DNA from: Minisyncoccota bacterium
Lineage (GTDB): Bacteria > Patescibacteriota > Minisyncoccia > Phycocordibacterales > DATDWN01
Length of the DNA: 64,000 nucleotides
NCBI GenBank assembly: GCA_041658985.1
Contig: JBAZZC010000006.1
Span: 2,369-66,368, forward strand
Direction: 5' to 3'
Under the pieces are notes generated by a model, which was given only the letters and a program-made list of their open reading frames with translations, had not been told where the DNA came from and did no database searches. Position numbers and translations under genes: made by a program. Position 1 is the stretch's first letter. Each line of letters opens with the position of its first letter. Below, in pieces: positions 5,674 to 55,714 of the stretch.

Positions 5674-5778
5674 TAAAATCTAGAATTTCTATTGATTTTT
5701 ATTAAGAAGATGACCTCACCACACGCCGGAGTGTTGTAGTGCGTGCGATGAGGCCATTTTCTCTACAAGAACTGGGGG

Positions 5779-6102
5779 CTAGTGCTGACGGACGGCATAT
5801 CGCCACCGGTGGTTTAATCTCACGGGTGCTTGCCGTGGCCGAGTAAAGACCAAAAGAAACTGCTCGGCCCGCCTTTTCTCATCTTTTTCCAGTCGTTCCA
5901 CAGCGAAAAGCACGGCGACAATCCTGCCAAGTGGCTCCTGAGGAAACTTGTACGCCTCCCCATGCTCCACATCGCGCACGACTTCTCTTTCCACGTGCGC
6001 AAGCTCGGCGAGTTCAACCCGACTGATTGAGGGATACCTCTCTCTCCCACACCGAACAATATGACCAAACGCCCTCACGACCCGAACCATCGCCTTTGAC
6101 AT
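5779..6102 (-). CDS. GC-rich cassette gene: Xre-family helix-turn-helix regulator
   Basis: SISRVELAELAHVEREVVRDVEHGEAYKFPQEPLGRIVAVL matches the Xre HTH signature. RBS GGGGG lies before the ATG at 6102. A TTGCAA/TGATAAT promoter-like pair lies upstream and a hairpin downstream. ~60% GC. Confidence 0.5.
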   Translation of the reverse strand: MSKAMVRVVRAFGHIVRCGRERYPSISRVELAELAHVEREVVRDVEHGEAYKFPQEPLGRIVAVLFAVERLEKDEKRRAEQFLLVFTRPRQAPVRLNHRWRYAVRQH

Positions 6103-6173
6103 GCGACCCCCACGATTAGATGCCACACTCCACTTACAATCAAATCATTATCACAAAAACTTTGCAAACACAT

Positions 6174-9235: not shown

Positions 9236-9370
9236 CTTTTCAGAGCAACCCTAAGAAATTCCAGCGAATTTCTTAAGGCCAGTCCTCACCCTCTATCTGT
9301 CAAGAGCCCTCGCTTTGCTCGGGTCTATGACAGAACCATGCTAGAGGGTTGCGGGGTCTCTGAAAAAATT
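9236..9370 (+). ncRNA. Candidate structured RNA element (multi-stem, strand uncertain)
   Basis: Closing helix CAGAGCAACCCT...AGGGTTGC(GGGGT)CTCTG. Internal perfect hairpin AAGAAATTC-CAGC-GAATTTCTT and nested stem CTGTCA...TGACAG. No family recognised. Confidence 0.25.
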
Positions 9371-9776
9371 ATGATTCAACAAGATTTTAATTTTTATTTA
9401 TCCCTAAGGTTGTGCCTTTAAAATTATTGTTTTTATAAACGAAAAAGAGGCGGCGGGGACTCTGCTGGCAGTCCCCACCCCTCTCGTGTTCCTTGGCCAG
9501 AGTGCCTCGCTCCCTCGAGAGCTACTGGCCGTCAATCCACACATCTGACCGTGTCGTGTCGCTACTGGCCAGTCGAGGTCGCCGTCGGCGCCATCTTGGT
9601 GGTTGTCGCCGCCGCCGTCGTCCTGGTCTTCGCCGTGCGTCGCTTCGTCGCCGTGGTCATTTCCTGCACCTCCTGTGTCCCGGAAAGAGTTGACGTGGAT
9701 GACGCGACTCCGCGATGCCATCCTCTATTAGCATAACAAAACAGTATTTACTGTGTCAATAGTTATCCACAGCACC

Positions 9777-10592
9777 CTAAAACACTAGAAATAGAATTAT
9801 TGCCAAGACTACCCTATACCAAATAAAGAGATTAAGGTTGTGAGTTTTAAGATAATTAATTAAAAAATTTATGGCAAATAGACCAGTAATAAAAGCCGTG
9901 ATACATCCAAGTAAAAGTGGTAAACCAAAATCCATAGAAAGTAACCCATGGCGAACTTCAAAAAGTTTTTTCAGTCCAGCCCCTAATAAAACCGGAATGG
10001 AAAGCAGGAAACTAAATCTCACAGCTTCATCTTTACTAAGACCTGCGATTAATCCACCAGAAATAGTTGAGCCAGAACGAGACATGCCTGGAACCAAAGC
10101 CAAACACTGAAACAGACCAATTATTATTCCCCTGACCCATGAGAGTGATTTGTTTTGTTTGGCTGTTTTTTCCGCATACCAAAAAAGAATACTCCCGAGA
10201 ATTAAAGTCAGGGCCACCAGCTCCACATTACGAAAAATTGTCTCCATCCAGTTTTCAAATATAAGACCAAAAAAAACGGCTGGAATTGTACCAAGCAAAA
10301 TCGCATAAATTAATGTTTTATTTGCTTGTAATTCCATGTTTTTCCGCCTAATGGTTCGCCAAACATCCTTAATTAATGGCCAAATATCTCCCCAAAAATA
10401 GATAATAAGTGCTAAGGTAGCCGATAACTGCAAAATAGCATCAAAAGCCAGACCACTTAAATCATTTGTATCAAAAAGCCTCCTGAATATGATAAGGTGG
10501 CCGGAGGACGAAACAGGAATAAATTCTGTTGCTCCTTCTATAAAACCAAGTATTATTGCTACAACGTACGTCATATAGTACAATGTTAGCAC
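9777..10592 (-). CDS. uppP: Undecaprenyl-diphosphatase (UppP/BacA)
   Basis: 271-aa polytopic membrane protein with BacA motifs (SRSGSTI, PGMSRSG-like). Confidence 0.85.
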   Translation of the reverse strand: MLTLYYMTYVVAIILGFIEGATEFIPVSSSGHLIIFRRLFDTNDLSGLAFDAILQLSATLALIIYFWGDIWPLIKDVWRTIRRKNMELQANKTLIYAILLGTIPAVFFGLIFENWMETIFRNVELVALTLILGSILFWYAEKTAKQNKSLSWVRGIIIGLFQCLALVPGMSRSGSTISGGLIAGLSKDEAVRFSFLLSIPVLLGAGLKKLFEVRHGLLSMDFGLPLLLGCITAFITGLFAINFLINYLKTHNLNLFIWYRVVLAIILFLVF

Positions 10593-10616: not shown

Positions 10617-11309
10617 ATGAGTGTAGAAAAATTGTCTGTACCAATAGCCATCGTAATTGCCGGAGGTCTAATAGCTGGGGCTTTATATTATTCAAACACA
10701 AAGGCTCCAAGCCAAGTAGTAAACAACAATGTACCACCAACAAACAATAATCTTGAGATGAAACCTGTTTCGTCCGATGACCACATCTTAGGAAACCCAA
10801 ATGCAGATATAATAATAGTGGAATATTCAGACCCCGAATGTCCATTTTGTAAAACATTTCATACTACATTACAAAGAGTCATGACTGAATATGGCAAGGA
10901 CGGTAAGGTCGCTTGGGTTTACAGACATTTTCCTATAGACCAATTACATTCAAAAGCACGAAAAGAAGCAGAGGCAACAGAATGTGCTAATGAACTTGGT
11001 GGTGACGGAAAATTTTGGGAATATATTAACCTCTTATATCAGACAACAAATTCAAATAACTCTTTAGACCCAGCAGAGTTACCTAAAATAGCAAAAACAG
11101 TAGGACTTAATGTTGATGCGTTTAATACCTGCTTATCAAGTGGAAAATATGCTGAAAAAGTGGAAGCTAATTATCAAGATGCAGTAAAAGCCGGTGGACG
11201 AGGTACTCCGAACTCAATAATTCTTTCAAAAGATGGCACAAAAACACCCATTGAAGGAGCCATGCCTTATGAGTCTCTCAAGGGTATCATAGACGCCTTA
11301 CTGAAGTAG
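10617..11309 (+). CDS. Membrane-anchored DsbA-family thiol:disulfide oxidoreductase (CPFC active site)
   Basis: N-terminal TM segment, thioredoxin fold with YSDPECPFC, and a DsbA-like helical insertion. Confidence 0.7.
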   Translation: MSVEKLSVPIAIVIAGGLIAGALYYSNTKAPSQVVNNNVPPTNNNLEMKPVSSDDHILGNPNADIIIVEYSDPECPFCKTFHTTLQRVMTEYGKDGKVAWVYRHFPIDQLHSKARKEAEATECANELGGDGKFWEYINLLYQTTNSNNSLDPAELPKIAKTVGLNVDAFNTCLSSGKYAEKVEANYQDAVKAGGRGTPNSIILSKDGTKTPIEGAMPYESLKGIIDALLK

Positions 11310-14270
11310 TTTGCGATAACCGCAATATTTACATTCCCTATCTGAACAATATTCAGTGGTGATTTTACCACTCCAGACACTTTCTATAACAGATTGAATT
11401 TCTTGTTTCACTCGTTTTACATCATCTTCTTCTACTGGAAGTGTTATCGTTGGACACCTGCCTTTGTCATCTGGAGATACAAAAACCAGTGACGTAGAAA
11501 TCTTTTTTGTTCGCCACTCACGGTTGTTTTGCAAAAGCAATTTGTAAAAAATAAGTTGTCTAAAATAATTACCGTCATCATTTTTTGTCTCTCCTTTAAT
11601 AGCTTCAACGGACATTTTTTGCCGAGTCTTATAGTCAAAAACAGCAGTCTCATCCCCCGTATCAATAATAACATCAAGTTTGCCGTGAACAGGAATGGTT
11701 ACTTTCTCTTTTTTATATACTCCATCAAATGGAAACTTTATCCATCTTTCTGTTGACACAATTCCTTTAGTATTAAAGTGTTCAGTTAAAGCAACAGCTA
11801 CTGCAGGAGTATTTTCAATTAATTCTTTTTTTAGGGCTTCTTTGTCGCCGGGAGAAAGCAGAGATTTATCAATATATTCCGTAATTCTGGTCGCAATAAT
11901 TTTTTCTATTTTTTTAGGAGAATGTTCTTGCTCTCTCCACACTTCCGATAAGGCATCGTGCATGCTACTTCCCTTCTCGGCTGAAACTGACGGAGCCTGT
12001 GGTAATTTTAAAATACTCTCATACATAAACTTGCTTGGACATTCTAAAAAGTGATTTAAGGCCGTGACAGACAAACCATTCTCCAACAGAACTCTCTTTG
12101 CTTCACTTATCATTAAATCATTGTACTCACTATTTATAGTTTTGCCTTTTGCGTTCTCTAGGGAGATATCACTTCTAGGCAAAGAAACTGTGACAACATT
12201 GTCTTTGTGCAGTTCATCCACAAATCGAAGGGGGGTTAAGGTTTTCCCGTCTGACTCTTCTAAAGAAGACAAAATAACTGCGTGCTTGCGAGCGCGGGTT
12301 ATGGCCACATAAAACAATCGCCTAATATCTCGAACGTCGTGGTCCCTTAAATTTTTCTCTGGAAGAATAAAAGAGGAGCCGTGAGACCTCCCCACCCAAG
12401 TCTCCTCGCTGGTGTATGGCATAAAGATATAATCAAATTCTAATCCCTTTGACCCGTGAGCAGTCATGGCTTTGATTGGAAAATCTGGTGCACCGACAGA
12501 AACCTTAACGGTCTTTGATTCAGCTGACTGTCTATGAGCCAACATTATTTTCATTAACTCTGTCGGATTATCTATGTCTCCATCACGAGCCAGTGACTCT
12601 GCTAGAGTAATAATAGCTCGCCAGACATGAACAAATGATGGGTCTCTGGAGACCAGAGCGGTAAACCCAGATTCTTCTCCACAATGGATAATTCCTCCTA
12701 CCGCCCCACTATCTAACATTCTTTTTTTAATATTTAAAATAGCCGGTATCTGTTTGTCTAATTCAGAAACCTGGCCGGACCTCAGTAAACGAATAATCTC
12801 TACCGCCTTACCAAAATTCAGACCCCACATACCAATAGCTAAAGTTTTACTGAGGGCATCAATTTTTGATGGGTCTACAACATATTCAATTAAATCAAAG
12901 AAGGCCATGCCAATAGGGTGATGAAAAATATCTAAACTTCTTTCCGAAGAAACAGAAATACCATGTGATTCAAGGACCCTTAAAACCCTTTCTAATTCAC
13001 GATTCCTTCTTGTAATAACCGCCACTGTCGCCTTGGGTTCATCTTTGGAAATTTTTCTAAGCTCATCTACCAAATATTTTTCGGTGGCAGAAGTGTTTTC
13101 TCCGATGACTATATCAAGAGGCCTCTTTTTTAAATCACTCCCAGGTTTTAACTGTACTCTGAGGTCTACATACTGCCCCTCATCATAATTATTTTCAATC
13201 ATAGCAAAACTGGCGTCCAATATTCCTTGATGTGACCGATAATTAGTGTTAAGAGCAATGACTTCCATGGATGGCCATCTTTTTTGCAGAGATAAAAAGT
13301 TGTCCACCGAGGCCCCTTGAAAACGATATATAGCCTGCTTTTCATCACCAACTATAAAAATATTTGGGGTCTCAAAAAATTCGGCAATTAAACTAATAAT
13401 ATAATTCTGGGCATCATTTGTGTCCTGATGTTCATCAACTAGTATGTAAAGAAATCTTTCTTGGACCAACCTCAACAACAGCTGGTCGGTACGCAAAGCC
13501 ACAAGAAATTCTATTATTAAATCATCATAGTCACGTAACTTTGCAGAATTTTTTTCTTCTTCGTATTTTTCGTATAAGTCAGCAAATAAAAAAGTCTTGT
13601 CTAATTTTTCTAATTTTTCTAGTGCCTCTGCTTTTAATTTGCCTTTGGTGATTCCTCTGGTAGATATATTTGACTCGTCATTTTTTGTTTTTTTTGTTTC
13701 TGCTTTGACATATTCCCGTACCATACTAGGAGTTAGGGCTTCTTTTTTTGAATCAGATATGGCTTTGATTATGGAAGATATGTAGGCGTCTGGCCGACTA
13801 AGCGGTCTAAGGGAAGTAAATCTTTGGTCTGTGAGAATGGAGCGGACGATCGATTCCTGTTCAACATCCGTCATTTGTTTAAAATCTCCTATCCTAATAA
13901 AGTGGTCAGGATATTCAGCCATCATAGCAGAAGCAAATCCATGAAAGGTGTGAATGTAAACATCGTGAGCCTCACTACCAATTACTTCCCGAAGTTTTTC
14001 TCGCATGGCTTTTACTCCAGCATCAGTATAGGTAATGGCTAAAATGCCGTGTGCTGGTGTGTCTGTTTTTCGTAAAATTTGAGCGATTCGTAGAGTCAAA
14101 ATTGTGGTTTTCCCGGTACCTGGACCAGCCACTACCAAAACCGGACCATCAATAGTATCAACCGCTTTTTTTTGTTCTGCGTTTAGTTTTTTATATTTTT
14201 CCTCAAATTCTTTACTAGAGATCATATGTATAGGATAACACGAAAATAGTTCCGTGTTGATTGGGGACAT
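11298..14270 (-). CDS. UvrD/PcrA-family SF1 helicase fused to a C-terminal Cas4/RecB-type PD-(D/E)xK nuclease with a 4-Cys cluster (AddA/AdnB-like)
   Basis: Walker A GPGTGKT, SF1 motifs and a DEHQD box. The C-terminus has ...CPSKF... plus VIIDTGDETAVFDYKT plus C-SDRE-C-KY-C. Confidence 0.85.
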   Translation of the reverse strand: MSPINTELFSCYPIHMISSKEFEEKYKKLNAEQKKAVDTIDGPVLVVAGPGTGKTTILTLRIAQILRKTDTPAHGILAITYTDAGVKAMREKLREVIGSEAHDVYIHTFHGFASAMMAEYPDHFIRIGDFKQMTDVEQESIVRSILTDQRFTSLRPLSRPDAYISSIIKAISDSKKEALTPSMVREYVKAETKKTKNDESNISTRGITKGKLKAEALEKLEKLDKTFLFADLYEKYEEEKNSAKLRDYDDLIIEFLVALRTDQLLLRLVQERFLYILVDEHQDTNDAQNYIISLIAEFFETPNIFIVGDEKQAIYRFQGASVDNFLSLQKRWPSMEVIALNTNYRSHQGILDASFAMIENNYDEGQYVDLRVQLKPGSDLKKRPLDIVIGENTSATEKYLVDELRKISKDEPKATVAVITRRNRELERVLRVLESHGISVSSERSLDIFHHPIGMAFFDLIEYVVDPSKIDALSKTLAIGMWGLNFGKAVEIIRLLRSGQVSELDKQIPAILNIKKRMLDSGAVGGIIHCGEESGFTALVSRDPSFVHVWRAIITLAESLARDGDIDNPTELMKIMLAHRQSAESKTVKVSVGAPDFPIKAMTAHGSKGLEFDYIFMPYTSEETWVGRSHGSSFILPEKNLRDHDVRDIRRLFYVAITRARKHAVILSSLEESDGKTLTPLRFVDELHKDNVVTVSLPRSDISLENAKGKTINSEYNDLMISEAKRVLLENGLSVTALNHFLECPSKFMYESILKLPQAPSVSAEKGSSMHDALSEVWREQEHSPKKIEKIIATRITEYIDKSLLSPGDKEALKKELIENTPAVAVALTEHFNTKGIVSTERWIKFPFDGVYKKEKVTIPVHGKLDVIIDTGDETAVFDYKTRQKMSVEAIKGETKNDDGNYFRQLIFYKLLLQNNREWRTKKISTSLVFVSPDDKGRCPTITLPVEEDDVKRVKQEIQSVIESVWSGKITTEYCSDRECKYCGYRKLLQ

Positions 14271-14288
14271 GGTGACCTCAACACGGAA

Positions 14289-14486
14289 CTATTCAGCGAC
14301 ACAAACTGGAACTGGAGGTAAGACAACCGCCTTCCAGACCCCTTCTTGGTGATTGAACTCCATATCCTCAAGAAGTTTCCAGCACTCATCACAGTAGCGA
14401 TACCCCTGAAAAATGACACGAACTTTCTTTCCGTGGCAGAATGGGCAACGCCTCTCGCCATCCTTGATATACGAAGCTTCAATCAT
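14289..14486 (-). CDS. Small C4 zinc-ribbon protein co-transcribed upstream of the helicase-nuclease
   Basis: CPFCHG...YCDEC. RBS GGAGGT lies 4 nt before the ATG at 14486. Palindrome ATGACCATGGGGTCAT sits just upstream. 18 nt separate it from the helicase start. Confidence 0.5.
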   Translation of the reverse strand: MIEASYIKDGERRCPFCHGKKVRVIFQGYRYCDECWKLLEDMEFNHQEGVWKAVVLPPVPVCVAE

Positions 14487-14562
14487 GTGACCTCCAAAAA
14501 ACAAATATGACCCCATGGTCATTTCGCATTTATAGTAACATTTTATATTTTTTTACACAAAC

Positions 14563-14620
14563 AAAAAAGCCTCGTGCCGGTGGGGATGCCCACATTGGGC
14601 ACCCCACCTACACGAGACCG
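14563..14620 (-). terminator. Rho-independent terminator of GC-island gene 1
   Basis: GGTGGGGATGCCCA-CAT-TGGGCACCCCACC stem followed by a U-run on the minus strand. Confidence 0.6.
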
Positions 14621-14622
14621 CG

Positions 14623-15240
14623 TCAGAAGTTCAGCCTTAGACCGGCCGAACCCCCAACTTTCTTCCCTTCCTTGACCGGCGCGACCCAGAGGTCGAACGG
14701 ACCGAACGACCTCTCAATGTACGGCCCGGTTCCGACGAACCGAGTGGAATTGGCCCCGAGCTTCCAGGAGCCGAGACGGACGGTGCCGGTGTACCGATAC
14801 CAGTATCCGCTCCCGCCGTTCTCATGTGAACTCTCAAGAGTCACTCGACCCTTGCTAATCCACAAGTTGCCTGCGAAGCGAAGTGGCTTCCTGTTGGTCT
14901 CCGCACCAACCAAGAAAGCCACCTGGATGGAGTCAACGGGGGCAAACGTCAGACCGACGAGCCCTTCGGCCCATTTCTCGGTTGACCACTGTCCCCCATC
15001 CTCTGTCCACTGGTTCGTGCCCCACCCCCACACGGCCCACCCGAACTTGCCCTTGATGGGGCCTTCCAGATAGACCGTAACCGAGGGGCTCGTATGCCCC
15101 CCAACGTACTCGTTGTACGATTCGACGAATCGAGTTGGCTCCTGCGCCGACGCCGGCACAAGTGAGGCCACCATCATGACGAGCAAGATGATGACCGTGA
15201 CACCGAAAGTCCGCGGACGAGTATCCAGTGTGATGTCCAT
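14623..15240 (-). CDS. GC-rich secreted protein, possibly an outer-membrane beta-barrel (signal peptide, C-terminal ...LRLNF)
   Basis: 205 aa with an SP ending ASAQ. It has alternating hydrophobic beta-strand-like segments and a C-terminal Phe. ~62% GC with its own promoter and terminator. Confidence 0.5.
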   Translation of the reverse strand: MDITLDTRPRTFGVTVIILLVMMVASLVPASAQEPTRFVESYNEYVGGHTSPSVTVYLEGPIKGKFGWAVWGWGTNQWTEDGGQWSTEKWAEGLVGLTFAPVDSIQVAFLVGAETNRKPLRFAGNLWISKGRVTLESSHENGGSGYWYRYTGTVRLGSWKLGANSTRFVGTGPYIERSFGPFDLWVAPVKEGKKVGGSAGLRLNF

Positions 15241-15254
15241 TGAAACCTCTTTGG

Positions 15255-15330
15255 AATCGGCTGGGGCGACATGCCCCTCTGCTCACAACAATAGCACCAA
15301 AATATTAAATTGTCAATATAAAATTTTGAT
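15255..15330 (-). promoter_or_regulatory. Promoter/5'UTR module of island gene 1 (TTGACA-17-TATTGT, then a GGGGC..GCCCC hairpin)
   Basis: 40 nt are nearly identical to 16085-16125 upstream of the paralogue. Confidence 0.5.
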
Positions 15331-15333
15331 ACG

Positions 15334-15384
15334 AAAAAAGCCCCGTGCCTGCGGAACCCGAGATGGGTTCCGCCGCACGAGACC
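15334..15384 (-). terminator. Rho-independent terminator of GC-island gene 2
   Basis: GCGGAACCC-GAGAT-GGGTTCCGC followed by a U-run. The outer flanks are shared with the terminator at 14563-14620. Confidence 0.6.
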
Positions 15385-15389
15385 GCGCA

Positions 15390-16064
15390 CTACTTGGTCG
15401 ACGCCCAGTGGACACCGACGTAGTACATGTACTGCTTCGCGTTCCCGTTCCGAGAGACGCTCCCGGTAACCGAGAAGTTGTTGTTGACCCTCTGGGTGTA
15501 CGACACCCCAGGGATCCGGTTCAGCGGGTCGTCGAGGAAGTTGAGAAGCGTGTAAGTCAAGCCGACAGGCCCGATATTGGCGTTGAAGCTCGCCAAGTAC
15601 CCAATCCACAGCTTCTCGGGGTTAACCCCGGAGCGCCAGTTCCTCGGCTCGACGCCGATGAACAGACACGGCCACTGAAAAGTCCCTACCGAGACCTCCT
15701 GCCCGGCAATCTTGCCGACCGGCAGACTCATATTCAGGTAGGGACCGACCCACGGAGAGCCCTGGAAGTGCCCAGCCGAACCGGCGACGGTTCCTGTGAG
15801 CTTTCCGAGCTTGAACTCGGGCCCCCAGACAACCCACGCCTGCTCCTGCTGAAATGCCACCTCGAGAAGATGGCCCCGGCCGTTCTTGAAGTCGACGATC
15901 CCGGTTATGCCAGAGCTGATCGGATCCTCACCGGCGGACACCGTGGCACCGGACAGCTTGTAGCCGCCGGGGTCCGCAGGCGGAGTCGCCGTCTGTGCCT
16001 GCGCCGCGAACGGCGTGAGACAGAGGACAAACAGGATGGATGCGACGAGTGTCTGTCTCTTCAC
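15390..16064 (-). CDS. Paralogous GC-rich secreted protein (GTG start, signal peptide ...AAQAQ)
   Basis: Start moved to the GTG at 16064, behind the duplicated promoter module. N-terminal signal peptide; overall similar architecture to 14623-15240. Confidence 0.45.
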   Translation of the reverse strand: MKRQTLVASILFVLCLTPFAAQAQTATPPADPGGYKLSGATVSAGEDPISSGITGIVDFKNGRGHLLEVAFQQEQAWVVWGPEFKLGKLTGTVAGSAGHFQGSPWVGPYLNMSLPVGKIAGQEVSVGTFQWPCLFIGVEPRNWRSGVNPEKLWIGYLASFNANIGPVGLTYTLLNFLDDPLNRIPGVSYTQRVNNNFSVTGSVSRNGNAKQYMYYVGVHWASTK

Positions 16065-16084
16065 GTTGGTCCTTTCGGTATCTT

Positions 16085-16140
16085 GGAGGCGACATGCCCC
16101 TCTGCTCACAACAATAGCACCAAACATCCATTTTGTCAAT
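16085..16140 (-). promoter_or_regulatory. Duplicated promoter/5'UTR module of island gene 2
   Basis: TTGACA...TATTGT plus the same GC hairpin as upstream of gene 1. Confidence 0.45.
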
Positions 16141-16202
16141 ATATCTCCTCCCCCCACCTTCACACAATAAAACCTTTAATCTCGTTGAACTAAAATCTTT
16201 TT

Positions 16203-16310
16203 GGAACATCCGCAGGCTTCCAGCATAGTTCTGTCAAGGCATCCCTTCTTGACAGATGGAAGCCGAGGACATGAACAAACCCAAGCGCTGGCTTGGGTTT
16301 GTGTTTTCAA
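16203..16310 (+). ncRNA. Candidate small RNA: nested 5' hairpin plus an intrinsic terminator, with no upstream plus-strand gene
   Basis: GCTTCCA..CTGTCAAG..CTTGACAG..TGGAAGC followed by CAAACCCAAGC-GCTG-GCTTGGGTTTG and TGTTTT. Confidence 0.2.
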
Positions 16311-16339
16311 AAAGGTTTTGGTGAAAAAGAGATTAAAAA

Positions 16340-17659
16340 TTAATAATAACTTCTCAGTCGATTTATCTTCTCATGCTGTCTTATCTTCTCATGTGCCTTG
16401 GCTTCAATCTGTCTGATACGCTCACGAGTAACCCCAAACTCCTTCCCCACTTCTTCTAGGGTATGCGTCACACCATCAACTAACCCGTGTCGAAGCTCTA
16501 AAATCTTTCTCTCTTTCTCTGGTAAGTCATTTAGAATTTCCTTGACTTGGTCAGAAATAATTCGTCTAGCCGACTCCTGCTCTGGAGACAATATTTTTTC
16601 ATCAGCCAAAAAGTCACCGAGTTTGCTTTTACTATCATCTTCATTTTCTCCTATCGGAGCTTCAAGCGAAAGAGTGCTTTGGTCAATTTTTTCAATAGTA
16701 TAAATTTTATCAACAGGAAGATTCATTTCAATAGCAATCTCTTCTGGTAGTGGGTCACGCCCCAAGTCCTGACTAAGACGCCTGACTACCTGTTTATACT
16801 TGGCAATGGTTTCCACCATGTGCACTGGAACACGAATGGTTCGTGACTGGTCCGCTAAAGCCCGAGTGATGGCCTGACGAATCCACCAGGTAGCATAGGT
16901 AGAAAACTTGTAACCCTTAGTCCAATCAAACTTACTAACGGCCTTAAAAAGGCCCAGGTTTCCCTCTTGTATGAGGTCAAGAAGCGTAAGGTCAGGACTT
17001 CGGTTAGCATATTTCTTGGCAATGGAAACCACCAAGCGTAAGTTAGCACGTGCTAAAAGATTTATAGCCTCAATATCTCCTTTTTCTATACGTTTTGCCA
17101 GTTCCTTTTCTTGACCACCGGAGATAAGTTGATATTGGCCAATTTCTTTAAGATACATCTGGATTGAATCGTAGGAAGATTCCCCACCACGACCATATGA
17201 ATATTTTTTGTTTAAGAGGTCATCACTTAAAGGCGACTCCAATAGTCCGCCCCCCTCCAAAATATCAATACCACTTACTGATAATTTTTCATAGAGTTCA
17301 TCGAGAAAAATAATATCATCTTCAATTGTTGGAAATTCTTTCAGAATCTCATCATAAGTTACATAACCTCTTTCTTTACCTTTGGCTAAAAGCCTAATTA
17401 ACCCCTCGCTTTGTTTATCAGCTTTTTTCATCACCACCTCTTTTTTCTTGGGGAGTGTCTTTGAAGCTCTCATAGCTAAAGAAGTTCTGCTCTTTTTCTT
17501 TTTGCGAATTTTTGGTACAACAAATTTTTTAGATTTTTGTAACTTACGTTTTATGTGTTTTTTGGATGCCTTTACCTTAGCTTTTACCAATTTTTTAGTA
17601 TGCTGTCGTGGTTTATGCCCAGTCTCTTTCTTGTTTTTTGTTTTTTTCTTTTTTTTCAT
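16340..17659 (-). CDS. rpoD: RNA polymerase sigma-70 (RpoD) with an ~80-aa Lys-rich N-terminal tail
   Basis: Regions 1.2, 2 ([12 protein letters not shown]), 3 and 4 ([20 protein letters not shown]). The N-terminus is a [11 protein letters not shown]... low-complexity tail. Confidence 0.9.
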
Positions 17660-29394: not shown

Positions 29395-29484
29395 TGCGGA
29401 GGATACAGGGATTGAACCTGTGTAACGGTATTAAGCGTGTTGTCGGTGTCGTAGACCGATGCATTACCACTCTGCCAATCCTCC
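29395..29484 (-). tRNA. tRNA gene: anticodon loop CUACGAC gives ACG (Arg) tentatively, with an atypically long ~21-nt variable region
   Basis: Reverse complement has GGAGGAT acceptor stem, AGTGGTAA D-loop, TCGGT/ACCGA anticodon stem, ACAGG-TTCAATC-CCTGT T-arm and ATCCTCC 3' acceptor. No encoded CCA. Confidence 0.5.
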
Positions 29485-32789: not shown

Positions 32790-33029
32790 GTTTTTATAAG
32801 CTAATTCTAATAACATTATTCTACTCCCCCTAAAAAAGATTACAAGGCCCAAATCCCTAAGGAGTCTCCTTGGGGAATGGTCATCGTTCTAGTAGACAGC
32901 AAAATTTTACAATAAAACCCCGCCGTAGAAAATCTACGCGGGGTCCAGAAACACGGGAGGGCTAAGGTCAAAGGGTCCAAGAAGGACACAGTGACCTTAG
33001 CCCTAAGTGCTAACTTGCCTGCCCCGTAG

Positions 33030-33389
33030 TCAGCTTTGCTGTACTACTGGGGCGAGAACGGCAGACATGTTGATGACGTTGAAGTCGCCACCCAGCCAGC
33101 GCACGTCCCAACGCCATTTGCCGTCGAGGTTGCCCCAGTAGAGGTACAGGACGCAACGAAGACCACCTGGGTTCCGAAGAACCGTGCCATCAAAGGTGAT
33201 GAACTGGATGTTCCCGTTCACCCGTTCCTTCCATGTCTCGGGAATGAGGTGCTGATTGCACCAGAAGAACAGAAACACGACCGCGTCGAGGCGGATGTGC
33301 CTCAAGGCCACCAGTCGTTTCAGCCTCTTTTCGCCTTTAACCGACAACTCGCCAGTCTTGAGCGTCGACACCAGGCGAACTTGGTCCAT
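33030..33389 (-). CDS. GC-rich cassette gene B (119 aa, hypothetical)
   Basis: ~58% GC and co-directional with 33477-33719. Confidence 0.35.
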   Translation of the reverse strand: MDQVRLVSTLKTGELSVKGEKRLKRLVALRHIRLDAVVFLFFWCNQHLIPETWKERVNGNIQFITFDGTVLRNPGGLRCVLYLYWGNLDGKWRWDVRWLGGDFNVINMSAVLAPVVQQS

Positions 33390-33476
33390 ATTGATCTCGG
33401 TCAGCCCGAGTGAGCGAACGTCCTGTTCCTCACTGCCCGTGAGACCGTTGCCATTGGCTGGACCTTTCCAGATCGT

Positions 33477-33719
33477 CTAGCCCGTGCCGATGAAGGCGGA
33501 GTCGAACGATTTGGGTCGGTCGATAATGACCCTGAACGCACTGACGATAAGGCGAGCACCGTTCTTGAGGAAGGCGGTGAATCTCTTACCGAATTCCTCG
33601 GGTGTGAGTTCGATCACTTCATTCTGAAGTGACCCTCCGTCGAGTTCATCCCAGTTGACCTGGGTTCCAACCCGAGCAGAGATTTGCAGAGCTTGACCGC
33701 GTGATACGGCTTGACTCAT
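33477..33719 (-). CDS. GC-rich cassette gene A (80 aa, hypothetical)
   Basis: ATG at 33719. A 16-bp perfect inverted repeat lies just upstream. Confidence 0.35.
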   Translation of the reverse strand: MSQAVSRGQALQISARVGTQVNWDELDGGSLQNEVIELTPEEFGKRFTAFLKNGARLIVSAFRVIIDRPKSFDSAFIGTG

Positions 33720-33756
33720 GACATCTCTCCCTTTCTTGCTAGAGGACTCCCGATGT

Positions 33757-33809
33757 GGTAGTCATAGCCAAAAAATCTCATATCTATAAGACCTTTTGGC
33801 TATGACTAC
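33757..33809. promoter_or_regulatory. 16-bp perfect inverted repeat GTAGTCATAGCCAAAA-N21-TTTTGGCTATGACTAC (operator-like)
   Basis: Lies between the capA-like gene's 3' end and the start of the GC cassette at 33477-33719. Confidence 0.4.
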
Positions 33810-37831: not shown

Positions 37832-37927
37832 TTAATATTTATAACACAAATTCTATGTTTTGAACAGACACGAAAAAGGAGGGGTGGCATCCCCCTCCTC
37901 TAGCCACACGACACCAGACCCAGATGT

Positions 37928-38233
37928 CTAGCCGACGACCTTACGAAATAGCCTCGCAAATTCGGCTGGTCCGTACACATCCACCTTGTGACCAGGGAAT
38001 ATCACGACCTTATCCCCGGAATTAACAAAGTTTCTGGTGCCGTCAACCACGAAATCGTACCGTGGAAAATTCTTGTGTTGGTTGCAGGTGTATGAATCCG
38101 TGGCGTCACAGGAGCACCGAACGAGTTTGACCACGAAGATGTTGCTGTTCGGGCCTGACGGAGCGAAAGTCTGTACTTTCACCCGCACAGGAATGGTCTC
38201 GTACGCTTCTGGCTCGACAGATCTGTTACTCAT
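37928..38233 (-). CDS. GC-rich cassette gene (101 aa) inserted between the KH gene and trmD
   Basis: Own promoter TTGACT-17-TACTAT, RBS GGGGGT, and terminator AGGAGGGG-GATGCCA-CCCCTCCT plus U-run at 37880-37915. Confidence 0.45.
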   Translation of the reverse strand: MSNRSVEPEAYETIPVRVKVQTFAPSGPNSNIFVVKLVRCSCDATDSYTCNQHKNFPRYDFVVDGTRNFVNSGDKVVIFPGHKVDVYGPAEFARLFRKVVG

Positions 38234-38317
38234 AATACCCCCAAAAAACTGGTTGTCATTGATGTTCCAATCTGATAGTAGAATGTGCCAAATTAACAAA
38301 TTAGTCAATATAAACAA

Positions 38318-46868: not shown

Positions 46869-47005
46869 TTCGTCTTCTAGTATATCAAATTTTTTTCATA
46901 ACAGAAAAAACAATAACAAAGGAAAAAAGTAATCTACTAAAATAATTTGACAAAACCGTCCTTTAATAGGATCATATTGGCTGGACCCTTTCAAGGAGGC
47001 CCGTT

Positions 47006-47326
47006 TTGAAAGCTAGAGGCTTCAACCTTTTCGCACTCGGCGCTCTGTTCGGAGTTCTCCTAACGGCAGGTGTTGGCCGATACAAGGCCAACGACCAGCC
47101 GACGGAGGTCGTCACGAACCACGACTGGACGTGGGTCAAGGTGGAAAACCTCGTGGGCGTACCCACGAAGGGACACGACTACAGTTTCGGTGACATGTGT
47201 AGCATCATGCCTGGCGGGGTACTGGAGGTCCAAAGAAAGGTGGACCCCTGGGTAGTGCTGGAGTACACAAGTCCCCGAGAACCAACCGAGCCCGAGTGTG
47301 GGAGAGCGGGACCATTTTCAGCATGA
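47006..47326 (+). CDS. GC-rich cassette gene: small secreted protein (TTG start, signal peptide)
   Basis: RBS AGGAGG 7 nt before the TTG. TTGACA promoter upstream. Two hairpins follow, the second with T6, at 47372-47460. Confidence 0.45.
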   Translation: MKARGFNLFALGALFGVLLTAGVGRYKANDQPTEVVTNHDWTWVKVENLVGVPTKGHDYSFGDMCSIMPGGVLEVQRKVDPWVVLEYTSPREPTEPECGRAGPFSA

Positions 47327-47492
47327 AGCTGGCTGAGTTCGACAGACGATGGCCTGCGACACGATAAGTACCTCATGGGATCCTGTAGACTGACAATGCG
47401 TCACTCTACAGGATCCCAGCCCCCGAATTGGAAAACTCCGTTCGGTGGGTTTTTTCGTTTAAAAATCACAATATTGAGTTATAACTTTTTCA

Positions 47493-47646
47493 AGACATTG
47501 CACAGTCAATTAGAAAACAACGACGAAGTACGCCAGCCCGAAGCACTGTTTGAGCGTAGCGAGTTTGCGAAAGGGCCAGTACTGAGGAAGATTGTTTTCT
47601 TGATTGACGAGCATAGTAAAATCGCACCAGCGATTTATACGTGTCT
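47493..47646 (+). repeat. Copy 2 of the duplicated ~160-nt structured element
   Basis: See 8410-8576. Immediately precedes the rnc stop. Confidence 0.5.
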
Positions 47647-50631: not shown

Positions 50632-50898
50632 TTACTTGCGCTTGGCAAGTCGTTGAAGCGCATTATCCGCTTCACGGACTTGCGTCGTCAGGCGAAATAC
50701 CTCAAGACGCAAATCCTCACACTCACGAACCAGACGAACAGCGTTTGCCAAAAGGCTAATCTTGGCGTTGGCATCTGGGTCTGGATTGCCAGAATCAACA
50801 CCATCCTTGAGAAACCTGATTTGGACAAGCATCAGGGCTTTGAAAGCATCAAGGGGAATCTCGAGCTTCCTTCCTGTTACCAACTCTTGCGTACTCAT
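50632..50898 (-). CDS. GC-rich cassette gene b (89 aa), N-terminal paralogue of 50910-51248
   Basis: RBS GGAGGA. Terminator AAGAGCCGT...ACGGACTCTT plus U-run at 50565-50625. Confidence 0.4.
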   Translation of the reverse strand: MSTQELVTGRKLEIPLDAFKALMLVQIRFLKDGVDSGNPDPDANAKISLLANAVRLVRECEDLRLEVFRLTTQVREADNALQRLAKRK

Positions 50899-50909
50899 AC
50901 TTCCTCCAA

Positions 50910-51248
50910 TCAAGAACCTGTTGTTGTCTTGGCCTGCAGTTCAACGAGGCCACAGGTGCATGGCTTGGCCTCGTGAACAACGACACCACCATGACCGATG
51001 ACGGCCGGAACCATGGTGCACCCGTCTGTGTGCTGGATGTACGGCTTCAGCGCCTCGACCTTCGCACGAAGGTCAGCGAGTTCGCGAACCGCAAGGACAG
51101 CAGGCTCGAGGACTTCTTCCTGCTCTCTGGTGTAACCATCACCACCCCCGGTCCTGAGGTAATGAATTTTGATCAGGATTTTCTGCAACACCCGATCAAG
51201 AGAGTCGACGAGCTTTCTTCCTTTGACCAAATCACTCAGGTCGTCCAT
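50910..51248 (-). CDS. GC-rich cassette gene a (113 aa) with a CxC motif near the C-terminus
   Basis: RBS GGGAGG. N-terminus ...LVKGRKLVDSLD... parallels ...LVTGRKLEIPLD... of gene b. Its stop lies 12 nt upstream of gene b's start codon. Confidence 0.4.
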   Translation of the reverse strand: MDDLSDLVKGRKLVDSLDRVLQKILIKIHYLRTGGGDGYTREQEEVLEPAVLAVRELADLRAKVEALKPYIQHTDGCTMVPAVIGHGGVVVHEAKPCTCGLVELQAKTTTGS

Positions 51249-51389
51249 TGACTTTGCCTCCCACCACAAAATACCACTACTTTTCCCAAATATCAAGCCC
51301 CTCTCCACCATAATGATGACATGCTATAATGTGAATCGAGCCTGTATTCACTTTATAACTTTCTACTTTATAACTTTATAACTCCTCAC

Positions 51390-55050: not shown

Positions 55051-55078
55051 CCCCATATACGCCATGGCGTATATGGGG
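55051..55078. promoter_or_regulatory. 28-bp perfect palindrome CCCCATATACGCCATGGCGTATATGGGG overlapping the -35 region of the Cas2-like gene
   Basis: It lies directly upstream of TGTATAAT (extended -10), which ends 8 nt before the ATG of 54642-55028, suggesting a leaderless mRNA. Confidence 0.5.
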
Positions 55079-55159
55079 ATATACAGTATTGTTAGTGTTT
55101 TTATATAGTTGTTTGTATAACAAAGGGCTGGTCGAGTTGACCAGCCCCAAGAACACACA

Positions 55160-55714
55160 TCAGTCTCTGTCGGCCCTGTGCCGATCTGATTCGGTACGCT
55201 TCACAGCATGTGTGGCACGTTCTGCTCGCACCTGCGCCACAATCTTGCGTTTCCGCTCGAGGAGATCGGTCGGGGAGCCAGGATCACCACACAGTTGTTG
55301 TAGATAGAATTCGCTCAGGCGCCGAGCACCTGCCAGACTGGCTTTGTCACGAGCAGGCTCAGAGTGAAGCCGGATGAGGTGGAAAGCCTCGTTCTGATCC
55401 ACTCGAGCAATATGCTCAATGACGGCCACCCAAACAGCTGACAGAAGAGAATTTCTGTAGATCTCCTTGAAAATCTCCAGGTCCCCGATCTGTTGGAGTT
55501 GACGCAGAGCATCGTAGGCTGCATCCTGGTCTACTCCAATTGCAATCTCGTACAGCCGGCGCCCCAACCGGAATGCATCCGCTACACTCCTTGCAAAAAC
55601 CTTGCGATACTTACGAAAGAACTCTGTGTCTTTCGTAGTCACTTCATGTTCTGAGAGAATCTGAAGTGTTGAGTTGATCTCCGTTCCCGTCATGGACGAA
55701 AGTAAGCTGGCCAT
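55160..55714 (-). CDS. GC-rich cassette gene (184 aa, hypothetical)
   Basis: TTGACA-16-TATAAAT promoter and RBS GGAG. Terminator GGGCTGGTC-AACTC-GACCAGCCC plus U-run at 55110-55145. Confidence 0.45.
   Translation of the reverse strand: MASLLSSMTGTEINSTLQILSEHEVTTKDTEFFRKYRKVFARSVADAFRLGRRLYEIAIGVDQDAAYDALRQLQQIGDLEIFKEIYRNSLLSAVWVAVIEHIARVDQNEAFHLIRLHSEPARDKASLAGARRLSEFYLQQLCGDPGSPTDLLERKRKIVAQVRAERATHAVKRTESDRHRADRD

Follow-up and report, generated by a model that had tools for sequence, protein, structure and literature searches.

Among described proteins, the closest counterparts of those treated here are KdgM of Dickeya (PDB 4fqe/4pr7) and NanC of E. coli (PDB 2wjq), in which about 200 residues after the signal peptide form 12 antiparallel strands with very short turns. 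We analyzed a 64,000-nucleotide stretch of contig JBAZZC010000006.1 (the window, below), a chromosomal locus of a bacterium of the Candidate Phyla Radiation (CPR; Candidatus Paceibacterota); a CPR-like host had already been proposed in an initial annotation of this DNA. Two adjacent genes in the window, A and B, are predicted to encode barrels of the KdgM/NanC design. The resemblance is one of fold alone, with 8-15% identity in structural alignments and no sequence relationship, and neither A nor B gives a significant profile match that would place it in the KdgM family (Pfam at E<=1, NCBIfam and PDB). The host differs too, being a CPR bacterium without a known outer membrane. The explanation that best accounts for the locus, in which we place modest confidence when it is taken as a whole, is that A and B are co-expressed autonomous cassettes, that their products are porin-type barrels residing in the CPR cell's own outer layer, and that their high GC content at third codon positions (GC3) is maintained.

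A broader comparison is offered by outer-membrane proteins (OMPs) that depend on the beta-barrel assembly machinery (BAM). Struyve, Moons and Tommassen reportedly described in 1991 the C-terminal beta-signal of OMPs, with its terminal Phe, and the family to which A belongs ends in the same residue. Both A and B resemble these OMPs in their Sec signal peptides and in strands that alternate between hydrophobic and polar residues. They differ in that family B has a short polar tail after the last aromatic residue, and in that BamA/Omp85 is, according to the literature, not known in CPR bacteria. Within the Terrabacteria there is a precedent in the Thermotogae 'toga', which is described as an outer sheath made largely of beta-barrel proteins rather than a classical lipid outer membrane (bioRxiv 10.1101/2022.09.22.508938). 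We use the toga as a pure analogy to A and B.

As genetic units, A and B also have described counterparts. Phage morons, which Juhala et al. are said to have defined in 2000 as intergenic insertions that differ in base composition from their surroundings and form autonomous promoter-gene-terminator units, resemble the A and B units in being monocistronic, in having their own promoter and terminator and a deviant GC content, in lying between unrelated conserved genes and in varying in presence among relatives. They differ from the A and B units, which lie in the chromosome core, have no phage relatives and have kept their deviant GC over long vertical descent. Integron cassettes are promoterless and belong to a system of attC, IntI and attI, whereas the A and B cassettes have their own promoters, hairpins with U-runs and housekeeping neighbors.

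Two transcription units in a GC-rich island

The mean GC content of the window is 38.7% (0.387). Its largest GC-rich island, at 14451-16250 with a peak of 65% GC, is occupied by two minus-strand open reading frames (ORFs). Gene A (14623-15240, minus strand) starts with ATG and encodes 205 aa ending in GLRLNF; its translation is identical to a 205-aa database protein listed as 'hypothetical protein [Candidatus Paceibacterota bacterium]'. Gene B (15390-16064, minus strand) starts with GTG and encodes 224 aa, identical to the 224-aa database protein P0010. GC and GC3 are 0.60 and 0.73 for A and 0.62 and 0.81 for B; the GC3 of neighboring genes is 0.27-0.34 in the window, and spans 0.24-0.34 when those of the related locus L003 are included.

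Comparison with orthologues establishes the reading frames. Differences at codon positions 1, 2 and 3 number 38, 29 and 104 between A and its orthologue at locus L004, and 57, 39 and 110 between B and its orthologue at locus L002, an excess at third positions which indicates that both genes are protein-coding in these frames. Dual coding on the antisense strand found no support, as the long antisense frames of the island are not conserved among orthologues and are therefore by-products of high GC. Both products are predicted to carry Sec signal peptides of the signal-peptidase-I type. Calls were rule-based: a basic n-region had to be joined by 10 or more consecutive hydrophobic residues and by A-x-A ahead of a Q. 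In both proteins the first two elements are followed by an A-x-A-Q sequence, ASAQ in A and AQAQ in B. By a check of the same kind, a hydrophobic signal region is present across both families (43 of 47 members of family A and 59 of 61 of family B). The two genes with signal peptides that were initially proposed are thus upheld by the substitution pattern and by family-wide signal features.

The genes are preceded by copies of a single promoter module. Positions 15265-15301 and 16088-16124 match exactly over 37 nt, a match obtained in 0 of 100 shuffles, and the repeat reaches 56 nt at 88% identity (15265-15320 and 16088-16143). Read on the minus strand, it consists of TTGACA, a 17-nt spacer and TATTGT with an upstream TG, and its promoter score is 10 out of 12. 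The promoter and leader of A occupy 15241-15320 (minus strand), with the -35 element TTGACA at 15316-15311, the -10 element TATTGT at 15293-15288, a stem-loop at 15263-15277 and the Shine-Dalgarno sequence AAAGAGG upstream of the gene. Those of B occupy 16065-16143 (minus strand), with TTGACA at 16139-16134, TATTGT at 16116-16111, a stem-loop at 16086-16100 and the Shine-Dalgarno sequence GAAAGGA. In both units the -10 element is followed by about 25 nt of common leader, which starts with the 5-bp stem-loop.

At the other end of each gene is a large hairpin. That of A (14563-14622, minus strand) is a compound hairpin at 14565-14616 plus a U-run, with a folding energy of -43.5 kcal/mol (z -5.9), and that of B (15334-15387, minus strand) is a hairpin at 15336-15381 plus a U-run (-38.1 kcal/mol, z -7.0); the U-run on the sense strand after each hairpin identifies them as intrinsic terminators. 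Both contain the motif CTCGTG...GGCACG(A/G)GGCTTTT, and their outer stems are conserved, whereas the inner stems are wholly different yet perfectly paired. Indeed, six terminators from three genomes, belonging to A, B and the zinc-ribbon cassettes described below, align as one hairpin family with compensatory changes in 7 of 17 consensus pairs. Neither leaders nor hairpins gave an Rfam match at gathering score, and within the window the promoter and terminator modules were found at A and B only. The duplication of both modules had been noted initially and is confirmed by the 37-nt identity and by the shared hairpin family.

A and B are therefore two separate single-gene transcription units, each with a sigma-70 promoter close to consensus, about 40 nt of leader, a Shine-Dalgarno sequence, a GC-rich frame and a hairpin terminator of about 20 bp, and the same promoter-gene-terminator layout is present at every homologous locus examined. 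Because the promoter, the start region and the first ~25 nt of the leader are identical, the two genes are likely to be co-expressed at equal levels. The combination of a strong promoter and a 5' stem-loop with a message that is GC-rich, where the cell is otherwise AU-rich, and that ends in a very large hairpin would be expected to yield stable, highly expressed transcripts, and we infer that the mRNAs of A and B are of this type. Such an architecture is typical of genes whose envelope products are very abundant, ompA and S-layer genes among them.

The initial annotation had regarded A and B as a strongly diverged tandem pair of paralogues, and this relationship is not supported. BLASTP between the two gives E 0.6, the HMMs (profile hidden Markov models) of the two families do not cross-match, and hhalign, with either 9 versus 27 or 43 versus 62 sequences, aligns the signal peptides alone. 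No similarity is detectable outside the signal peptide, and the ratio of nonsynonymous to synonymous substitution rates (dN/dS) between A and B, to which the initial annotation had looked, is consequently undefined.

Predicted barrel folds and family features

Structure prediction suggests that A and B each form a compact 12-stranded up-and-down beta-barrel of the bacterial outer-membrane kind. For B, AlphaFold2 returned 12 consecutive antiparallel strands, joined by very short turns and by a single loop of 18 residues, with a predicted local distance difference test score (pLDDT) of 89.7 and all five models between 88 and 90. When PDB was searched with Foldseek, the best matches to B were KdgM (E 6e-5, TM-score 0.69 normalized to the target) and NanC; transmembrane beta-barrels accounted for 49 of the top 50, and the sole match of a soluble type had a probability of 0.35. 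The best model of A likewise contains 12 strands, at a moderate pLDDT of 69, and its matches include designed transmembrane barrels, OmpG, KdgM (0.64-0.65) and intimin/invasin barrels. The idea of a beta-barrel, already present in the initial annotation, is thus borne out by two predicted folds of 12 strands each whose PDB matches are almost all outer-membrane barrels.

The sequences of the strands fit this picture. Their faces alternate between hydrophobic (Kyte-Doolittle mean about +1.15, 5-7% charged) and polar (-0.45 in B and -1.1 in A, 16-23% charged). Of the two, the hydrophobic face varies more, clearly so in family A. Such variability suggests a lipid-facing surface rather than a hydrophobic core; the outward face was assigned here from conservation patterns. 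At the C-terminus, 42 of the 47 members of family A have F as their final residue, with the terminal motif G-x-R-F-N-F, so that the OMP-like ending first noticed in A itself proves to be a family trait. The last strand of family B reads W-M-F-Y-x-G-x-T-W and is followed by a polar tail of 2-5 residues; with the W of the last strand at this distance from the C-terminus, B resembles OMPs with a terminal aromatic residue only loosely.

Both families are small. A word-indexed search of 5.8 billion proteins found 47 members of family A and 27 of family B, and when 1.84 billion representatives were searched exhaustively with the B profile in HMMER, only 137 matched. These include a distant group of proteins, about 200 aa long, for which hhalign gives homology to the core family a probability of 100%. 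Family-specific motifs are QQEQAW, GHFQGxPWxGP and LNFLDDPxN in B and ExGGSGYWYR in A. Searches of A and B against Pfam (E<=1), NCBIfam, PADLOC and PHROGs gave zero matches, as did searches of the two family profiles against PDB sequences. The named members of both families are from Paceibacterota, Saccharibacteria, Minisyncoccia, Liptonbacteria, Komeilibacteria and the 'Patescibacteria group', with one exception, an 'Acidobacteriaceae' metagenome-assembled genome (MAG) from a study that also yielded a Saccharibacteria MAG. Judged by these searches, families A and B appear to be restricted to CPR bacteria.

The exceptional family-B member (L008/L017) is on JBLMZH010000016.1, a 52-kb contig of 53% GC labeled 'Acidobacteriaceae bacterium MAG208', together with cupredoxin and purine-synthesis genes. 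This contig is either the sole non-CPR carrier of B or part of a mislabeled bin; the Saccharibacteria MAG of the same project also has the gene.

Proposed channels in the cell's own envelope and alternative functions

After Sec export, A and B would act as small channels in the envelope of the CPR cell itself, in an outer layer that contains lipid or is rich in protein, and the C-terminal Phe motif of family A would serve closure or assembly of the barrel. This functional step is the least certain part of the explanation that we favor, and several points weigh against it. The literature counts CPR bacteria as monoderm, among the lineages that lost the outer membrane, which leaves no known membrane or assembly machine for such barrels. 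No BamA-type gene is found among the Pfam annotations of the window and of the loci, which come from partial genomes, and no whole-genome search for Omp85/BamA was made. The folds of A and B are predictions only, and that of A comes from one of five models, at pLDDT 69, with the other four at 41-52. In family B the excess variability of the hydrophobic face is marginal (entropy 1.51, against 1.43 for the polar face), and the expression and stability of the A and B mRNAs are deduced from sequence architecture alone. As for the envelope itself, one account acknowledges that its structure in CPR bacteria is unclear (PMC5220378).

The barrels might instead be released by the CPR cell and become embedded in a partner's membrane at the contact site, where they would act as a conduit for metabolites beyond the synthetic capacity of the reduced cell. 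CPR bacteria live as episymbionts or parasites and have a minimal metabolism, the proteins are predicted to be exported and are porin-like, the producer has no known outer membrane, and the genes evolve faster than rpoD in the manner of surface or interaction proteins (between the window and L004, A is 74% identical and rpoD 98%). We nevertheless consider secretion unlikely. Known secreted pore formers are soluble monomers that oligomerize, whereas a single-chain 12-stranded barrel, its exterior being hydrophobic, would be insoluble in transit; the C-terminal Phe motif marks barrels that are assembled in the producer's own envelope; and none of the loci examined shows linkage to secretion or contact systems.

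Quite improbable, in our judgment, is a role as soluble or wall-associated carriers in which a greasy cavity would bind hydrophobic ligands such as scavenged lipids, as in an enlarged lipocalin or LolA. The need for such a carrier can be argued, as CPR bacteria have no fatty-acid synthesis and must obtain lipids (the pathways are absent in a Parcubacterium, according to the literature), and alternation of hydrophobic and polar residues along the strands would suit a barrel facing either way, the inward face not being given by sequence alone. The Foldseek matches ranked highest are, however, essentially all transmembrane barrels, the polar face is better conserved and the hydrophobic face more variable, clearly in A, as in transmembrane barrels, and the C-terminal motif is of the OMP type.

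Maintenance of the GC contrast and origin of the genes

The GC contrast between the two genes and their surroundings might be read as a sign of recent import. Comparison of the window with L003 points elsewhere. Fourfold sites are 36-39% identical alike in rpoD, dnaG, the gene for a UvrD-like helicase and B, and are thus saturated, and amino acid identity is similar for B (68%) and the UvrD-like gene (71%). Since B is syntenic and as diverged as its neighbors, it has most likely descended vertically. Despite saturation at synonymous sites, the GC3 of B is 0.81 in the window and 0.73 in L003; the persistence of high GC3 at such sites argues that the contrast is maintained and not the mark of a recent arrival. 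An import free of constraint would long since have drifted to host composition. The GC excess recurs, moreover, at most other loci of the families, in CPR genomes with a background of 35-57% GC. GC3 could be held high either by selection on the mRNA, through resistance to AU-directed RNases or through translation kinetics, or by GC-biased gene conversion at a recombining locus.

These data bear directly on the proposal that OMP genes were recently transferred from a high-GC diderm or actinobacterial donor, the GC content being the donor's signature, which we regard as very improbable. It is suggested by genes of 60-62% GC in a 38.7% GC genome and by an OMP-like fold. No donor came to light in the initially suspected Proteobacteria, Actinobacteria or other high-GC taxa: the searches of 5.8 and 1.84 billion proteins yielded small families with no homologue outside CPR-labeled genomes except in the 'Acidobacteriaceae' MAG, and neither Pfam nor NCBIfam contains a matching family. 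The synteny of B, its divergence in step with its neighbors, its GC3 of 0.73-0.81 and the recurrence of the GC excess across CPR genomes of different background GC all speak for long residence.

At least seven further small GC-rich islands, of 50-61% GC against 38.7%, are present in the window (5701-6150, 9301-9850, 32851-33800, 37851-38250, 46951-47500, 50701-51300 and 55051-55650), each with one or two short orphan ORFs. The orphan ORFs in these islands include 5779-6126, 33030-33389, 33477-33719, 50910-51311, 50632-50913 and 55160-55714 on the minus strand and 47006-47326 on the plus strand. Several have a promoter-like sequence upstream, a GC-rich hairpin downstream or both, and none has a Pfam, PADLOC or PHROGs match. 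Moron-like GC-rich units appear to be dotted among AT-rich housekeeping genes across the genome.

Cassette turnover downstream of rpoD

A and B lie between two conserved genes. The upstream flank is rpoD (16340-17659, minus strand), which encodes a sigma-70 factor, recognized through the Pfam domains of its L003 orthologue, to which its amino acid identity is 88%. The rpoD terminator hairpin (16275-16302, minus strand), an inverted repeat of -19.1 kcal/mol (z -4.1) with compensatory changes in L004, forms the 5' boundary of the variable segment. The downstream flank (11298-14270, minus strand) encodes a 990-aa UvrD-like helicase with a PD-(D/E)XK nuclease domain, recognized through the Pfam domains of the L002/L003 orthologue, and is 71% identical to that of L003. 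Immediately after A, a third cassette (14289-14522, minus strand; GC 0.47) encodes a 77-aa zinc-ribbon protein with CPFC...CDEC. The order in the window is dnaG-rpoD-B-A-Zn-ribbon-UvrD-like. At L002/L003, where rpoD is 88% identical to that of the window, it is rpoC-dnaG-rpoD-B-Zn-ribbon-UvrD-like, and at L004, a closer relative (285 of 292 rpoD residues identical), it is rpoD-A-Zn-ribbon.

The presence of rpoD-B or rpoD-A at the same spot in different relatives indicates that cassettes turn over here, and bears out the cassette shuffling suspected in the initial annotation. The intergenic region that follows rpoD in the window, upstream of B, aligns with that of L004, upstream of A, through the rpoD terminator and the promoter to TATTGTTGTGA, so that the same promoter position drives different cargo in the two genomes. 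Within the window the two promoter copies are identical, whereas the orthologous promoter of L004 has diverged, which points to recent duplication or gene conversion. A history suggested by synteny is that cassette A entered the locus downstream of B and brought along a copy of the promoter module. The B-only state of L002 would then be the arrangement that preceded the arrival of A, and recombination between the repeated promoter modules would delete B and give the A-only state of L004.

A gene for a zinc-ribbon protein (47-77 aa, CPxC...CxxC, GC-enriched) follows the barrel cassette in three genomes, at 14289-14522 in the window, at 6778-6975 in L002 and at 1923-2066 in L004. The three proteins are barely alike, the best pairwise comparison giving E 6e-4 over 22 residues. 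A perfect 16-bp inverted repeat, AATAGTTCCGTGTTGA / TCAACACGGAACTATT, lies after the zinc-ribbon gene at 14245-14293 and spans the start codon of the UvrD-like gene (14270); as this terminator-like hairpin overlaps the translation start, it could attenuate the UvrD-like gene.

The families occur in other settings as well. A genome scan based on an 8-sequence alignment of family B located it elsewhere in CPR bacteria as a solitary promoter-gene-terminator unit set among different housekeeping genes: L31 and S2 flank it in one genome, and in a second it comes directly after L25. In another Paceibacterota contig A and B are 4.4 kb apart. In L001 (331-5291) and L018 (4669-11264), a family-A gene and a divergent A-paralogue form a tandem immediately ahead of the mraZ-rsmH-ftsL-PBP cluster (PBP, penicillin-binding protein). 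In the L001 tandem, the flanks of which were read, each A-type gene has its own promoter and terminator; a Band_7 protein precedes this tandem, and GC is enriched along all 5.5 kb of the segment. The L018 tandem directly follows an ATP-binding cassette (ABC) importer whose NMT1-type substrate-binding protein is fused to an OmpA-like peptidoglycan-binding domain.

Could the cassettes be integron-like, with the hairpins as attC-like recombination sites, or prophage morons? The hairpin design of a conserved outer and a variable inner stem does recur at several cassettes, and phage morons are likewise autonomous modules of deviant GC. We think either origin scarcely credible. The U-run after each hairpin makes the hairpins intrinsic terminators, each cassette has its own promoter, unlike those of integrons, and no integrase is present among the immediate neighbors (rpoD, dnaG and the UvrD-like gene). 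As for phages, there was no PHROGs match, no tblastn match in 50,697 phage records and no relative in IMG/VR, a fold search of BFVD gave generic phage-borne outer-membrane barrels only, and the flanking genes are core housekeeping genes. An artefact, whether a chimeric assembly or a non-coding RNA whose frames are chance products of high GC, would explain the many overlapping frames in all frames of the GC-rich stretch, the long antisense ones included, but its chance is negligible given that the same genes stand in CPR housekeeping contexts in more than 10 independent assemblies, that substitutions cluster at third codon positions of the proposed frames, that the antisense frames are not conserved and that Rfam gave no match at gathering score.

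Implications and other features of the window

A search of the literature on CPR bacteria or Patescibacteria for beta-barrels or porins found no report of such proteins. What would be new, if the models are right, are OMP-like barrels in an unexpected lineage and their unusual, maintained composition; the fold class, of the KdgM/NanC type, is already known. Whether CPR cells have one membrane or two bears on models of outer-membrane loss in the Terrabacteria and on the exchange of material between symbiont and host, and two unannotated families, one with a confidently predicted barrel and one with a Phe signal, provide a molecular handle on this question. GC-rich genes kept for long in AT-rich genomes present a second puzzle, for the evolution of codon usage and for the use of GC deviation as evidence of transfer.

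A wider conjecture, doubtful but in our view worth stating, is that some CPR bacteria, the Paceibacterota and their relatives, are not simply monoderm. They would possess a lipid-containing or toga-like outer layer with lineage-specific 12-stranded barrels, placed there by an unrecognized machine or by self-insertion, which could be relics of a diderm ancestor; and the GC3 of 0.5-0.8 in A, B and several other small orphan genes of the window, in genomes where GC3 is about 0.3, would be actively kept, by selection on the mRNA or by biased gene conversion.

Elsewhere in the window, positions 274-2043 code for 589 aa that include bacterial Ig-like domains and two copies of PG_binding_1; the product is a surface protein anchored to the wall, as expected where peptidoglycan is exposed. 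The only tRNA of the window is a tRNA-Arg(ACG) of 89 nt at 29396-29484, which exceeds the standard length of a tRNA-Arg by about 12 nt. In Rfam, 88 of its nucleotides align to the 71-position tRNA model, and the extra length may be an insertion or an intron.

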